Below are positions 8,071-38,953 of a stretch of DNA of 64,000 nt, piece by piece. The notes under the pieces were generated by a model. It worked only from the letters and a program-made list of their open reading frames with translations, made no database searches and had not been told where the DNA came from. Source of the stretch: Escherichia coli (GTDB taxonomy: Bacteria; Pseudomonadota; Gammaproteobacteria; Enterobacterales; Enterobacteriaceae); the NCBI RefSeq assembly GCF_009931435.1, contig NZ_CP043414.1; one strand, written 5' to 3'. The first letter of the stretch is position 1; each line of letters begins with the position of its first letter. The translations under genes and the position numbers were made by a program.

Positions 8071-9386
8071 GTCAGGCTAAATCGAACAAAATGGGCGTCG
8101 TTCAGTTAACCATACTGACGATGGTCAACATGATGGGCTCCGGCATCATCATGCTGCCGACAAAGCTTGCCGAAGTTGGGACAATCTCAATAATCTCCTG
8201 GTTGGTGACAGCCGTAGGCTCAATGGCGCTGGCATGGGCATTCGCAAAATGCGGTATGTTCAGCCGTAAATCAGGCGGTATGGGCGGTTATGCCGAGTAT
8301 GCTTTCGGTAAATCCGGTAACTTTATGGCGAACTATACCTACGGCGTCTCGCTGCTGATTGCTAACGTGGCGATTGCTATTTCGGCAGTTGGTTACGGCA
8401 CCGAACTGCTCGGCGCGAGTTTGTCACCAGTGCAGATTGGTCTGGCAACCATCGGAGTGCTGTGGATTTGTACCGTGGCTAACTTTGGTGGTGCGCGCAT
8501 TACCGGGCAAATCAGTAGCATTACCGTGTGGGGGGTCATTATTCCGGTGGTAGGCCTGTGCGTTATCGGCTGGTTCTGGTTTAGCCCGACACTTTACGTT
8601 GATTCCTGGAATCCGCATCATGCACCGTTCTTCAGTGCGGTAGGTTCTTCCATCGCCATGACGCTGTGGGCTTTTCTTGGTCTGGAGTCTGCGTGTGCGA
8701 ATACTGATGTAGTGGAAAACCCGGAACGTAATGTGCCAATCGCGGTACTCGGCGGTACGTTAGGTGCGGCGGTGATTTATATCGTCTCCACCAACGTGAT
8801 TGCCGGGATTGTGCCCAATATGGAGCTGGCAAATTCAACGGCACCATTTGGTCTGGCCTTCGCGCAAATGTTCACACCGGAAGTGGGTAAAGTCATTATG
8901 GCGCTGATGGTGATGTCCTGCTGCGGTTCACTGCTTGGCTGGCAGTTCACCATTGCCCAGGTGTTTAAATCTTCATCTGATGAAGGCTACTTCCCTAAAA
9001 TTTTCTCCCGTGTAACCAAAGTGGATGCACCGGTTCAGGGGATGTTGACCATTGTGATTATTCAGAGTGGATTGGCACTGATGACCATTAGCCCGTCACT
9101 GAACAGCCAGTTCAACGTGCTGGTTAACCTGGCCGTGGTGACCAATATCATTCCGTATATCCTGTCGATGGCGGCATTAGTCATTATTCAGAAGGTCGCC
9201 AATGTGCCACCATCAAAAGCGAAAGTAGCAAACTTTGTTGCCTTTGTTGGTGCGATGTACAGTTTCTATGCGCTGTACTCATCCGGGGAAGAAGCCATGC
9301 TGTACGGTTCCATCGTGACTTTCCTTGGTTGGACACTGTATGGTCTGGTATCACCACGCTTTGAACTGAAAAACAAACACGGTTAA
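8067..9386 (+). CDS. potE: putrescine-ornithine antiporter
   Basis: ORF track 8067..9386, 439 aa, 12 predicted TM segments, APC-family transporter; ATGA overlap with speF stop. Confidence 0.95.
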   Translation: MSQAKSNKMGVVQLTILTMVNMMGSGIIMLPTKLAEVGTISIISWLVTAVGSMALAWAFAKCGMFSRKSGGMGGYAEYAFGKSGNFMANYTYGVSLLIANVAIAISAVGYGTELLGASLSPVQIGLATIGVLWICTVANFGGARITGQISSITVWGVIIPVVGLCVIGWFWFSPTLYVDSWNPHHAPFFSAVGSSIAMTLWAFLGLESACANTDVVENPERNVPIAVLGGTLGAAVIYIVSTNVIAGIVPNMELANSTAPFGLAFAQMFTPEVGKVIMALMVMSCCGSLLGWQFTIAQVFKSSSDEGYFPKIFSRVTKVDAPVQGMLTIVIIQSGLALMTISPSLNSQFNVLVNLAVVTNIIPYILSMAALVIIQKVANVPPSKAKVANFVAFVGAMYSFYALYSSGEEAMLYGSIVTFLGWTLYGLVSPRFELKNKHG

Positions 9387-9404
9387 AAAAAGCGAAATAA
9401 AAAA

Positions 9405-9436
9405 GGGCGATTGAATGATCGCCCTTTCTGTTTGTT
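9405..9436 (+). terminator. rho-independent terminator after potE
   Basis: gggcgat / atcgccc stem with 6-nt loop followed by tttctgtttgtt. Confidence 0.7.
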
Positions 9437-9467
9437 GACAAAGAGTTCGTTATTTATGCCGCATCCG

Positions 9468-9610
9468 GCAGGTGTAGGGTCCAAACGCGGTCGAACACAG
9501 CAACTATTTGCGTAATTATATGAGGCATTTGCGACAAAAACTGGAACAGGATCTCGTCCGCCCCGCCATTTCATTACTGAAACCGGTATTGGGTATCGGT
9601 TTATGCTTTG
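9468..9610 (+). repeat. degenerate direct copy (~90% identity) of the last ~143 bp of kdpE (5038..5182), non-coding (premature TAG)
   Basis: By-eye alignment: caggtgtagggtccaaacgcggtcgaacacag...gaaaccggtattgggtatcggtttatgctttga versus kdpE 3' end caggtgtggggaccaaacgcggtcgaacacag...gaaaccggtattgggtatcggtttatgccatga; one 1-nt indel. Confidence 0.85.
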
Positions 9611-9734
9611 AAAAAAGTGGCAATGTATGGATAAAGTCATTTTTTATTCAAATATAAGGAACTTAATATTTAAAAAATGTCCCATACAATGCCTCATCAT
9701 AAATGACACCGTAGCACACAAGGAGCAAGTAGCG

Positions 9735-10385
9735 ATGCGTGAAGTGAGTCAGTTAGTAAATACTGAAGATTCAGCCTGGACAATAATCCAGAATTGGTTA
9801 AAAGAAGCCACAAACCATGCCGAACTCTTACCGGTTAATAAAGATTTAGCCGAAACCGCACTTTATCAATTACAGGTTACAACAAAATCACCGATGGGTG
9901 CGCTTGTCTATGGCTCCGGAGGTCTGCTGATTGATAACGGTTGGTTACGCATAGCAGGCTCTGGTCACCCCCGGTTACCACGAGATCCAGCAAGTTGGAC
10001 ACAACGCCCTGAATTCGCAAGCGTGCGGGCTTTACCCATCGCCGATGATGTCGCAGGGGGAATTTTTGCTCTTAATGGTGGCGATCTTGGGGAAGATACT
10101 GGCTGCGTTTATTATTTTGCGCCAGATACGCTGAGTTGGGAAAGTCTGGAGGTTGGATATTCTGAGTTTCTTCAGTGGGCATTATCCGGTGATTTAGATA
10201 CCTTCTATGAAAATGTACGCTGGCCGCAATGGCAAGAAGACGTAATAAAATTATCGGCAACGGAAGCCTTCACTTTCTACCCTTTCTTATGGGTACAAAG
10301 TGAAGAAGCAAGAACAAGAAAAGTTATTTCGCTTACTGAACTCTGGGAAATGCAGTATCAAATGAAAGAAACAATCACGCAATAA
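9735..10385 (+). CDS. DUF2625-family protein (YbfG-like), apparently intact
   Basis: ORF track 9627..10385; start placed at ATG 9735 (MREVSQL...) with aaggag 10 nt upstream, 216 aa; position corresponds to ybfG/ybfH locus. Confidence 0.7.
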   Translation: MREVSQLVNTEDSAWTIIQNWLKEATNHAELLPVNKDLAETALYQLQVTTKSPMGALVYGSGGLLIDNGWLRIAGSGHPRLPRDPASWTQRPEFASVRALPIADDVAGGIFALNGGDLGEDTGCVYYFAPDTLSWESLEVGYSEFLQWALSGDLDTFYENVRWPQWQEDVIKLSATEAFTFYPFLWVQSEEARTRKVISLTELWEMQYQMKETITQ

Positions 10386-10396
10386 GACATGTTCAG

Positions 10397-10428
10397 GTCC
10401 GGGTTTCATTCCCGGACTCGCTATTTTA
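10397..10428. terminator. hairpin between convergent genes (DUF2625 gene and ybfP)
   Basis: gtccggg tttcatt cccggac followed by tcgctatttt. Confidence 0.55.
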
Positions 10429-10920
10429 ATGTGTGTTTATCGCTTTCAATTCTTGCTGGCAATTTTCTGACTGACAGCGTCGCAACTCAATAATCCCGAC
10501 ATGCATCATCGAGCCAAAAAATCCGCTTTCGCTGACATAATCCTCATTAACTATCGGTCGAGTGCCGGGCTTACCCTGGCAAATCCCCATAAAAAATGAG
10601 GTGTAGCATTGCCATTCAGGATTTAAACCGGTCTTTTCTTGTGCTGACATATCATGAAGATAAGTAAGTTCTTTTTCGTTCCCGCCTGACAACTGCCAGC
10701 GGCGGGTATTATCAGGTAAGTTATCGCCACGGCAATTTGTCTTACACCGGGAAGGCGCAATATTTACCGCAATGCTACCCGTTAATCCTCTGGTTTTATC
10801 TTTAGGGGTCAGTAACCAGTCACCAGCTAATGATGATTGTTCAGGTTGGGCGCATGCTGTCAGCAGTAGTGTGGCGGTAATTAATGCCACTCTGACGACC
10901 AGACTCCTTTTGGTCTTCAT
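10426..10920 (-). CDS. ybfP: lipoprotein YbfP
   Basis: ORF track 10426..10971; start placed at ATG 10920 (MKTKRSLVVRVALITATLLLTAC), lipobox LTAC, 164 aa. Confidence 0.85.
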   Translation of the reverse strand: MKTKRSLVVRVALITATLLLTACAQPEQSSLAGDWLLTPKDKTRGLTGSIAVNIAPSRCKTNCRGDNLPDNTRRWQLSGGNEKELTYLHDMSAQEKTGLNPEWQCYTSFFMGICQGKPGTRPIVNEDYVSESGFFGSMMHVGIIELRRCQSENCQQELKAINTH

Positions 10921-35940: not shown

Positions 35941-37479
35941 ATGGCTTTTGCCTCATTAATTGAACGCCAGCGCATTCGCCTGCTGCTGGCGTTATTATTC
36001 GGTGCCTGCGGAACGCTGGCCTTCTCTCCTTACGATGTCTGGCCTGCGGCGATTATTTCGCTGATGGGACTTCAGGCGCTCACCTTTAACCGCCGTCCAC
36101 TCCAGTCTGCCGCTATTGGCTTTTGCTGGGGATTTGGCCTGTTTGGCAGCGGTATTAACTGGGTCTATGTCAGCATCGCGACCTTTGGCGGAATGCCTGG
36201 CCCAGTTAACATCTTCCTGGTGGTGCTGCTGGCGGCGTATTTGTCGCTGTATACCGGACTGTTTGCTGGCGTGCTGTCGCGTCTGTGGCCGAAAACCACC
36301 TGGCTACGCGTGGCGATTGCCGCCCCTGCTCTCTGGCAAGTGACCGAGTTTCTGCGCGGTTGGGTGCTGACTGGCTTCCCGTGGTTGCAGTTCGGCTATA
36401 GCCAGATTGACGGTCCGTTAAAAGGACTGGCACCGATAATGGGCGTGGAAGCCATTAACTTCCTGCTGATGATGGTAAGCGGCCTGCTGGCACTGGCGTT
36501 GGTCAAACGCAACTGGCGTCCGCTGGTGGTGGCCGTCGTGCTGTTCGCCCTTCCCTTCCCGCTGCGTTACATCCAGTGGTTCACCCCGCAACCGGAGAAA
36601 ACCATTCAGGTTTCGATGGTTCAGGGCGACATTCCGCAATCGCTGAAGTGGGATGAAGGCCAGCTTCTCAATACGCTGAAGATTTACTACAACGCAACGG
36701 CACCGCTGATGGGCAAGTCATCGCTGATTATCTGGCCGGAGTCGGCGATAACCGACCTGGAAATTAATCAGCAGCCGTTCCTCAAAGCACTGGACGGTGA
36801 GTTGCGTGATAAAGGTAGCTCGCTGGTCACCGGGATTGTCGACGCGCGTCTCAATAAGCAGAACCGCTACGATACCTACAACACCATCATCACGCTGGGT
36901 AAAGGTGCACCGTACAGCTATGAATCGACCGATCGCTATAACAAAAACCATCTGGTGCCGTTTGGCGAGTTTGTCCCGCTGGAGTCGATTCTGCGTCCGT
37001 TAGCACCGTTCTTTGATCTGCCGATGTCGTCATTCAGCCGTGGACCATATATCCAACCACCGCTGTCGGTAAATGGTATTGAGCTTACTGCGGCTATTTG
37101 CTACGAGATCATTCTCGGCGAGCAAGTGCGCGATAACTTCCGCCCGGATACCGACTATCTGCTGACTATCTCCAACGATGCGTGGTTTGGTAAGTCTATT
37201 GGCCCATGGCAGCACTTTCAGATGGCGCGAATGCGTGCGCTGGAGCTGGCGCGCCCGCTGCTGCGTAGCACCAATAATGGCATCACGGCGGTGATTGGTC
37301 CGCAGGGTGAGATTCAGGCGATGATCCCGCAATTCACCCGCGAGGTGTTGACCACTAATGTGACGCCGACTACCGGACTCACACCGTACGCACGTACCGG
37401 CAACTGGCCGCTGTGGGTACTGACGGCACTGTTTGGTTTTGCCGCTGTGTTGATGAGTCTGCATCAACGACGTAAATAA
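35941..37479 (+). CDS. lnt: apolipoprotein N-acyltransferase
   Basis: ORF track 35941..37479, 512 aa; N-terminal multi-TM region plus CN-hydrolase domain. Confidence 0.95.
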
Positions 37480-37490
37480 TCCCTTCTTAT

Positions 37491-37558
37491 CGTGCCGGAA
37501 TACATCCCGTATTTCGGCACGCTCGCCGGATGTGGTATCAGTGCGTTATCCGGATGAC
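37491..37558. repeat. hairpin plus REP-like palindrome downstream of lnt
   Basis: cgtgccgga ... tcggcacg stem, then gccggatgtggtatcagtgcgttatccggatgac. Confidence 0.6.
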
Positions 37559-37578
37559 AAAATTCCCCTATCCAACTT

Positions 37579-37594
37579 TGGCACATCTATTGCT
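37579..37594 (+). promoter_or_regulatory. candidate sigma-54 (-24/-12) promoter upstream of gltI
   Basis: TGGCAC-atcta-TTGCT matches TGGCAC-N5-TTGCW; TGCACC / GGTAGCACC half-site-like motifs nearby. Confidence 0.35.
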
Positions 37595-37875
37595 TTGTTA
37601 TACAAGGCAAAGCTTGAACCCGCGTCAGAACAACCCGGTTGCACCACAGCAATCCACCGGTAGCACCAAAAGAGTGCATTTTAAGAATTTTGCTTCGGAA
37701 TGGTGCGGCGCATCTCGCAAAAACAAACAATAAAACATCAATATCTTTACATTTAGCCAAACTAAATGTTACCTAACAAACACAACACTGCACAATAAAG
37801 TTGCAGATGATAACAACACAAACACTCACAACGGGTATCCATGCGTTCTTAACGCAGAAGATAAAGGAGTTGGAT

Positions 37876-38784
37876 ATGCAATTACGTAAACCTGCCACAG
37901 CAATCCTGGCCCTGGCGCTTTCCGCAGGCCTGGCACAGGCAGATGACGCCGCCCCGGCAGCGGGCAGTACGCTGGACAAAATCGCCAAAAACGGTGTGAT
38001 TGTCGTCGGTCACCGTGAATCTTCAGTACCTTTCTCTTATTACGACAATCAGCAAAAAGTGGTGGGTTACTCGCAGGATTACTCCAACGCCATTGTTGAA
38101 GCAGTGAAAAAGAAACTCAATAAACCGGACTTGCAGGTGAAACTGATTCCGATCACCTCACAAAACCGTATTCCGCTGCTGCAAAACGGCACTTTCGATT
38201 TTGAATGTGGTTCAACCACCAACAACGTCGAACGCCAAAAACAGGCGGCTTTCTCTGACACTATTTTCGTGGTCGGTACGCGCCTGCTGACCAAAAAAGG
38301 CGGCGATATCAAAGATTTTGCCGACCTGAAAGGCAAAGCCGTAGTCGTTACTTCCGGCACTACCTCTGAAGTTTTGCTCAACAAACTGAATGAAGAGCAA
38401 AAAATGAATATGCGCATCATCAGCGCCAAAGATCACGGTGACTCTTTCCGCACCCTGGAAAGCGGTCGTGCCGTTGCCTTTATGATGGATGACGCTCTGT
38501 TAGCCGGTGAGCGAGCGAAAGCGAAGAAACCAGACAACTGGGAAATCGTCGGCAAGCCGCAGTCTCAGGAAGCCTACGGTTGCATGTTGCGTAAAGACGA
38601 TCCGCAGTTCAAAAAGCTGATGGATGACACTATCGCTCAGGTGCAGACCTCCGGTGAAGCGGAAAAATGGTTTGATAAGTGGTTCAAAAATCCAATTCCG
38701 CCGAAAAACCTGAACATGAATTTCGAACTGTCAGACGAAATGAAAGCACTGTTCAAAGAACCGAATGACAAGGCACTGAACTAA
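37876..38784 (+). CDS. gltI: glutamate/aspartate ABC transporter periplasmic binding protein
   Basis: ORF track 37801..38784; start placed at ATG 37876 (MQLRKPATAILALALSAGLAQA signal peptide) with aaggag upstream, 302 aa. Confidence 0.94.
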   Translation: MQLRKPATAILALALSAGLAQADDAAPAAGSTLDKIAKNGVIVVGHRESSVPFSYYDNQQKVVGYSQDYSNAIVEAVKKKLNKPDLQVKLIPITSQNRIPLLQNGTFDFECGSTTNNVERQKQAAFSDTIFVVGTRLLTKKGGDIKDFADLKGKAVVVTSGTTSEVLLNKLNEEQKMNMRIISAKDHGDSFRTLESGRAVAFMMDDALLAGERAKAKKPDNWEIVGKPQSQEAYGCMLRKDDPQFKKLMDDTIAQVQTSGEAEKWFDKWFKNPIPPKNLNMNFELSDEMKALFKEPNDKALN

Positions 38785-38789
38785 TTACA

Positions 38790-38941
38790 AGAACCAGGGG
38801 CGGAAATTCCAGCCCTCTCGATTGTTACGTAGCACGGACAGACTATACGCCTGATGGTCGTTCCCCATCGGGCCTGAAAACCGCAATACGCTGGGTAACA
38901 ATCTTCGAGGGTAGCAGTTAACGCTGCTACCCTCTTTTTTC
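38790..38941 (+). ncRNA. sroC: sRNA SroC region (gltI 3' end / gltI-gltJ spacer), ending at an intra-operon terminator
   Basis: 169-nt spacer between gltI and gltJ ending in gagggtagcag ttaacg ctgctaccctc + T7 (38907..38941); 5' boundary not determinable from sequence alone. Confidence 0.5.
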
Positions 38942-38953
38942 TGGAGTAGATTT

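Follow-up and report, generated by a model that had tools for sequence, protein, structure and literature searches.

The DNA analysed here is a 64,000-nucleotide stretch of Escherichia coli sequence (hereafter the window), and the region of interest within it is the spacer separating lnt from gltI. The lnt gene (35941–37479, + strand), encoding apolipoprotein N-acyltransferase, is a 512-amino acid ORF annotated in a 99%-identical E. coli record and ends with a TAA stop codon at 37477–37479. The gltI gene (37876–38784, + strand) comprises 302 codons plus a stop, starts with an ATG at 37876–37878 and is annotated in near-identical records as encoding the periplasmic binding protein of the glutamate/aspartate ABC transporter. 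The spacer itself (37480–37875) is thus 396 bp in length. Downstream, the 4-kb gltIJKL–rihA stretch finds a match in 5415 of 5426 complete E. coli genomes, with identities of 95–99% and a best value of 99.3%. The gene for the small RNA SroC is located at the gltI–gltJ junction (38780–38942, + strand; Rfam RF00369, 174.8 bits, E = 2e-38) where it overlaps the gltI stop codon, and was the sole feature identified when Rfam families were searched for, with nothing being found in the spacer.

A preliminary description of this locus stated that an IS5 element is present between lnt and gltI in E. coli K-12 and pointed out that the 396-bp spacer in the window is uninterrupted. Alignment to K-12 bears out both points. 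In K-12, an IS5 element of 1195 bp, flanked by duplicated CTAA, is inserted at the position matching 37773–37776 of the window, with junctions that read ttacctaa followed by GGAAGGTGCGAA at one end and TTCGCACCTTCC followed by ctaacagg at the other, and an IS5 transposase gene is annotated between lnt and gltI in the K-12 strain HST04. Removing IS5 from the K-12 sequence leaves a collinear 396-bp spacer. In the window, IS5 is absent from the spacer and only a single CTAA is found at 37773–37776; judged by the K-12 junction sequences and the HST04 annotation this is the empty target site. It follows the sigma-54 element described below by 198 bp and precedes the gltI ATG by 100 bp.

The contrast with K-12 therefore stands, but the IS5-free state is not an unusual one. 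Of 5426 complete E. coli genomes, no more than 353 have the K-12 junction, so that absence of IS5 is the normal state in this species and K-12 is the exception. The short spacer of the window type is present in 1833 of the same 5426 genomes, whilst a third allele, here termed the rhomboid allele, is found in 3238 (~60%); between them, the three account for 5424 of the 5426. In the rhomboid allele, 154 bp of the window sequence (37477–37630) is replaced by ~2.2 kb of DNA that includes a divergently oriented gene for a 625-amino acid ‘rhomboid family intramembrane serine protease’. Strains with this allele include CFT073 and Z226-1 (locus 8425–10648 in the retrieved piece of the latter). No matches to the rhomboid-family gene were seen in tblastn searches of the gltI loci of the other genera sampled.

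Immediately downstream of lnt, two adjacent hairpins are apparent on the + strand (37491–37557), the first (37491–37521) with a 13-bp stem and the second (37523–37557) with REP-like CCGGAT...ATCCGG ends. The predicted RNA fold of this region has an energy of -32.5 kcal/mol (z = -4.55 relative to shuffled sequences). As no T-run follows, the hairpins are probably REP-type repeats rather than a classical terminator. They are located upstream of the promoter, outside the conserved regulatory module discussed below.

The preliminary description also proposed that the spacer contains a sigma-54 promoter, TGGCAC-N5-TTGCT, and in this its coordinates and sequence are confirmed. The element TGGCACatctaTTGCT (TGGCAC-atcta-TTGCT) is found at 37579–37594 on the + strand, the same strand as gltI, and matches the consensus TGGCACN5TTGCW at 11 of 11 positions, its GG and GC doublets being separated by exactly 10 nt. 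The 64-kb window has no second exact match on either strand, and dinucleotide shuffles give an expectation of 0.05. With one mismatch allowed, five matches are found versus 3.5 expected, which is no rarer than chance, and so only the perfect match at 37579–37594 is informative. A second sigma-54 promoter, either downstream of the NtrC-like sites described below or on the minus strand, was also considered but was rejected, no match elsewhere in 37400–37900 scoring above 7/11. Exact match to consensus, identity with a K-12 ChIP-seq site and conservation in 67 species together identify 37579–37594 as the -24/-12 element of gltI–sroC–gltJKL.

From the T of TGGCAC to the gltI ATG (37876) is 297 nt. 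With the C of the -12 GC placed 12 nt upstream of the transcription start, as is the rule, initiation is predicted to occur at ~37605 (±2), giving a leader of ~271 nt, in agreement with the earlier estimate of about 280 nt. No mapped gltI 5′ end was found in the literature searched. No terminator is predicted in the leader between the sigma-54 element and gltI.

Downstream of the promoter are three sites resembling those bound by the nitrogen regulator NtrC, which we scored against the 12 positions of the consensus dyad TGCACC-N5-GGTGCA. Dyad 1, TGCACCACAGCAATCCA (37640–37656), matches at 9/12 positions and is centred at ~+44 relative to the predicted start; dyad 2, AGCACCAAAAGAGTGCA (37662–37678), matches at 10/12, is centred at ~+66 and is the best conserved of the three; dyad 3, TGCTTCGGAATGGTGCG (37691–37707), matches at 9/12 and is centred at ~+95. 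The starts of dyads 1 and 2 are 22 bp apart and those of dyads 2 and 3 are 29 bp apart. Although 38 dyads scoring at least 9/12 are found in the 64-kb window, only here do three fall within 70 bp (a Poisson expectation of ~0.01 such windows). The TGCACC-like motifs that had been noticed downstream of the promoter are thus real. What does not hold is their use as grounds for treating the promoter assignment as tentative: the downstream location is a conserved feature and not a sign that the assignment is wrong. NtrC enhancers are usually found ~100–150 bp upstream of the start (PMC4066584), but the conserved dyads at gltI all lie downstream of it. As enhancers work from either side, an upstream position is not strictly defining for an NtrC enhancer, and the arrangement, judged by analogy, appears atypical yet mechanistically unproblematic.

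The gltI-proximal part of the leader contains several further conserved features. In an alignment of 20 members of the Enterobacteriaceae, the 170 bp preceding the gltI ATG are highly conserved and include a block (37708–37780, + strand), the most conserved of the leader, with the sequence TTTACA at 37746–37751 and, overlapping this, a palindrome at 37749–37769 whose 8-bp arms are perfectly complementary in the window, ACATTTAG-ccaaa-CTAAATGT. The palindrome is kept in the Enterobacteriaceae as ACATTaAGCCA.ACTAAATGT and could be an operator or part of a sigma-70 promoter. A sigma-70 promoter for gltI has been reported (see below) and probably lies in the TTTACA block; as a scan of the spacer with the sigma-70 consensus found no site scoring at least 9/12, it can be placed only tentatively, from conservation. 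The K-12 IS5 lies at the downstream edge of this block, and gltI in K-12 is thereby cut off from both the TTTACA block and the sigma-54 promoter.

Further downstream is a fourth dyad, TGCACAATAAAGTTGCA (CTGCA...TGCAG; 37789–37805), which is conserved in the Enterobacteriaceae only and matches the NtrC consensus at 10/12 positions. Its location, ~210 bp beyond the sigma-54 element, is well removed from the three-dyad module. It may fold into a hairpin close to the 5′ end of a proximal transcript or act as a protein-binding site. This dyad was also considered as a sigma-54 element but was rejected on account of its wrong spacing. Next comes a C/A-rich stretch (37811–37833, + strand) with which the small RNA GcvB probably pairs through its G/U-rich R1 region. 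The duplex predicted between R1 and 37798–37833 has an energy of -36 kcal/mol, versus -22.6 ± 2.7 kcal/mol for shuffled sequences, for the R1 sequence used here, and targeting of gltI by GcvB R1 has been verified in Salmonella (PMC9299463). By this modelling, 37811–37833 is the probable R1 pairing site. Finally, a small hairpin, GCGTT-ctt-AACGC (37843–37855, + strand), is found upstream of the ribosome-binding site AAGGAG (37864–37869); RNAalifold analysis of 30 species predicted four pairs, three of them with at least one double (compensatory) change. The fold of the leader as a whole is not significant (z = -1.46).

To examine conservation of the promoter and dyads more widely, gltI loci were retrieved from other species by means of a degenerate coding-sequence pattern, which does not involve the spacer. 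The genera represented include Escherichia, Citrobacter, Enterobacter, Kluyvera, Serratia, Yersinia, Pantoea, Erwinia, Dickeya, Pectobacterium, Hafnia, Budvicia and Photorhabdus. A -24/-12 match of at least 10/11 is present in 67 Enterobacterales species at 278–496 nt upstream of gltI, mostly at 290–320 nt, and the long leader of the preliminary description is therefore both real and conserved. Across the same 67 species, 143 NtrC-like dyads fall in bins +40 to +139 from the T of TGGCAC, compared to six in the mirror-image bins upstream. A 28-species alignment gives the same picture: the conserved columns comprise the promoter and the three dyads only (dyad 1 reading GCACCA-N5-G.GCA), with no conservation between genera upstream of the promoter.

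The module of three dyads can be made out in 62 of the 67 species. Of these 62, 51 have an internal spacing of precisely 22 and 29 bp, and dyad 3 begins 29 bp after dyad 2 in 55. The distance between promoter and module falls into discrete classes (82–84, 92–96, 103/107, 115–118 and 159–161 bp) separated by steps of ~11 bp, and the circular concentration of these distances peaks at a period of 11. Steps of roughly one helical turn argue for a need of the dyads to be oriented towards the promoter complex, as expected when an enhancer-binding protein acts by looping, but the spacing changes represent perhaps five or six independent indels in related species and the phasing is thus supportive rather than proof. 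In Yersinia aldovae, Y. artesiana and Y. thracica the sigma-54 element is found 422–451 nt from the ATG, and the stretch separating promoter and dyad module is longer than that of E. coli by ~77 bp, or seven turns; these species would be useful natural variants for studying the effects of distance and phasing.

The rhomboid allele provides a natural exchange of the upstream DNA within E. coli. Homology with the window breaks off 9 bp before dyad 1, and the gltI-proximal 245 bp, with all three dyads, are shared. In the 60% of E. coli genomes with this allele, therefore, the DNA upstream of 37631 is unrelated to that in the window, yet the dyads are kept and a sigma-54 element is found at an equal distance from gltI: this element is TGGCATgtaagTTGCT (TGGCAT...) in place of the window’s TGGCACatctaTTGCT, located at -297 from the ATG and 60–61 bp before dyad 1.

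Published work on sigma-54 and NtrC bears directly on this promoter. The 17-mer TTGGCACATCTATTGCT, identical in MG1655 and in the window, is sigma-54 ChIP-seq site OS04 in the study of Bonocora et al. (2015; PMC4591121), where its signal, 21-fold above threshold, is among the highest values in the part of the table examined and its PSSM score is 11.7. There it is assigned to the downstream gene insH3 and marked as predicted in EcoCyc. An NtrC ChIP-seq peak from nitrogen-starved K-12 (688381–688461) was assigned by its authors to gltIJKL (PMC4066584); it overlaps the centre of the sigma-54 motif (688459) and reaches ~80 bp to the downstream side. We considered using these coordinates to place NtrC but rejected them as decisive evidence, since 80-bp intervals are too coarse to separate upstream from downstream: the published intervals at glnK, glnH and rutA are centred at most ~20 bp from the sigma-54 motif, with those at glnK and rutA likewise centred slightly downstream of it. 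Genomic SELEX, an in vitro selection, yielded peaks in the insH/lnt spacer for NtrC as well as for RpoN holoenzyme (PMC8743547).

Evidence is also available from other strains and from Salmonella. In Salmonella LT2 the gltI site TGGCACGTCTATTGCTTT is bound by sigma-54 in ChIP-chip (Samuels et al. 2013; PMC3844500) and the gltI operon is listed as NtrC-dependent (PMC3844500, PMC4987338), with 1.8-fold induction by a constitutive activator being seen on microarrays (PMC3844500). In E. coli, expression of ybeJ (= gltI), whose sigma-54-dependent promoter is described as known, falls when rpoN is mutated in CFT073 and in EDL933 (PMC9017345), and gltIJKL is stated to have both sigma-70 and sigma-54 promoters (PMC9731577). 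SroC, a processing product of the gltI 3′ UTR, serves in the literature as a read-out for nitrogen induction of the gltI promoter: it is induced by nitrogen limitation in Salmonella and in E. coli O157 and O111 but only marginally so in K-12, an effect attributed to IS5 (PMC9731577). The nitrogen-regulated expression of gltIJKL proposed from the motif is thus supported by sigma-54 and NtrC occupancy in K-12, by the fall in expression in rpoN mutants and by SroC induction in IS5-free strains. The sigma-54/NtrC promoter of gltI (ybeJ), the K-12 IS5 polymorphism and its regulatory effect have, accordingly, already been published.

Taken together, these results make it very likely (a probability of roughly 0.85) that 37579–37594 is an NtrC-activated sigma-54 promoter of gltI–sroC–gltJKL, present here in the uninterrupted, non-K-12 configuration and accompanied by downstream NtrC dyads. 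In the mechanism that we propose, sigma-54 RNA polymerase would bind TGGCAC-N5-TTGCT (37579–37594) as a closed complex and, under nitrogen limitation, phosphorylated NtrC would assemble on the three dyads in the leader (~+44, +66 and +95), looping the DNA back to the polymerase from the downstream side and driving ATP-dependent promoter opening. Transcription would then start near 37605, producing a leader of ~271 nt that would run through the NtrC sites, the likely sigma-70 block, the C/A-rich GcvB target and the small hairpin before reaching gltI. In K-12, IS5 stands between the promoter module and gltI and largely uncouples the two. That the three dyads make up an activating enhancer is suggested by geometry, the centre-to-centre distances between promoter and dyads (~60–115 bp) mirroring those of upstream NtrC enhancers.

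The dyads could, however, play a mainly negative role at a promoter that is itself real, acting as a roadblock or ‘governor’ that restrains read-through when NtrC~P is abundant, or repressing the downstream sigma-70 promoter, with activation being brought about by NtrC in solution or bound at unrecognised sites. NtrC represses glnAp1, which provides a model for the dyads as repressor sites. The gltI dyads are in the transcribed region (~+36 to +103), where bound NtrC could hinder elongation, and are ~40–110 bp upstream of the TTTACA block; moreover, low-affinity ‘governor’ sites have been described at glnAp2 (PMC3870243). We nevertheless consider a mainly negative role improbable. There are no other conserved NtrC-like sites from which activation could proceed, the upstream bins being empty across 67 species and the upstream DNA being wholly replaced in 60% of E. 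coli; in addition, the ~11-bp quantised distance argues for face-of-helix contact with the promoter complex and the ~60–115 bp between promoter and dyads is what is seen, in mirror image, at upstream enhancers. Activating and negative roles for the dyads are not mutually exclusive.

Two other explanations concern the promoter rather than the dyads. The sigma-54 transcript could be a separate leader or regulatory RNA, with gltI mRNA arising essentially from the proximal sigma-70 promoter, as might be thought from the unusual length of the leader (~271 nt), the highly conserved TTTACA block 125 bp upstream of the ATG, the reference in one paper to ‘the single gltIJKL promoter’ (PMC4474525) and a microarray induction of only 1.8-fold in Salmonella. 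A transcript of this type is difficult to reconcile with the drop in gltI/ybeJ mRNA in rpoN mutants of two IS5-free strains, with nitrogen induction of SroC where IS5 is absent but only marginally where it intervenes, or with a leader that has no terminator-like site and a fold that is not unusually stable (z = -1.46), and we regard it as decidedly unlikely. Least probable of all is that the motif arose by chance, or is a non-productive sigma-54 site of the kind often seen within genes, and has no role in gltI expression. Many E. coli sigma-54 ChIP sites have no link to transcription, a theme of the ChIP-seq study (PMC4591121), and matches with one mismatch are no rarer than chance in the window, but the perfect match seen here has no equal in the window, its distance from gltI stays similar across the whole order, a conserved NtrC module accompanies it, and both rpoN and nitrogen dependence of gltI have been published.

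An NtrC-activated sigma-54 promoter upstream of gltI has consequences for how the locus is understood. Because the window lacks the IS5 insertion, nitrogen control of gltI should be intact, unlike in K-12; on this sequence-based expectation, the window strain would keep its glutamate/aspartate uptake under nitrogen control, together with the SroC sponge RNA, an input to the GcvB amino-acid network. For annotation, K-12-based databases attach the site to insH3, but ~94% of complete E. coli genomes have no IS5 at this location. More tentatively, and with the balance of probability against it, the gltI NtrC enhancer may be a natural downstream enhancer within the transcribed leader, consisting of a fixed three-dyad module whose distance from the promoter changes in ~11-bp steps. 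If this is true, it would be a case of conserved, helically phased activation from downstream, in which the polymerase must transcribe through its own activator’s binding sites. The downstream three-dyad arrangement was not found described in the literature searched, but the likeliest sources (Zimmer et al. 2000; Reitzer and Schneider 2001) lay outside this and it may already have been noted. The comparative result, a downstream enhancer at a quantised distance, is of some value for studies of the geometry of sigma-54 activation but leaves knowledge of the regulon unchanged.

The closest known counterpart is the gltI promoter of K-12 MG1655, where the 17-bp TTGGCACATCTATTGCT is identical and likewise follows lnt. 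The same three dyads are present in K-12 with one or two substitutions and, minus IS5, the spacers are collinear and 93% identical. K-12 differs in having the 1195-bp IS5 downstream of the promoter, so that the nearest downstream gene is a transposase, and in showing only marginal nitrogen induction of gltI and SroC. In Salmonella Typhimurium LT2, a different genus with the same operon and the same activator, NtrC, the gltI (STM0665) promoter TGGCACGTCTATTGCTTT, as published, has one substitution in the N5 spacer. The TGGCACGTCTATTGCTTT 18-mer is also found in Citrobacter youngae and at two other loci, 291–298 nt from the ATG.

More broadly, the glnAp2, glnHp2 and glnK promoters of E. coli share with the window a -24/-12 element and dyads of the TGCACC-N5-GGTGCA type, and likewise have several sites ~two helical turns apart at an enhancer–promoter distance of ~60–120 bp. 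In those promoters the enhancer is upstream, at approximately -100 to -150 (PMC4066584), whereas the window dyads are all downstream, in the leader. In Bacillus subtilis, rocG has a sigma-54 (SigL) promoter whose enhancer is naturally downstream (Belitsky and Sonenshein 1999, as cited in PMC3844500). This enhancer, at which RocR binds, is situated 1.5 kb away on the far side of the gene, whereas the sites in the window are only 40–100 bp downstream and are of the NtrC type. In 1986, Reitzer and Magasanik reportedly studied glnA enhancers that had been artificially relocated, and these relocated sites are, together with rocG, precedents for an enhancer-binding protein activating sigma-54 polymerase from downstream of the promoter.
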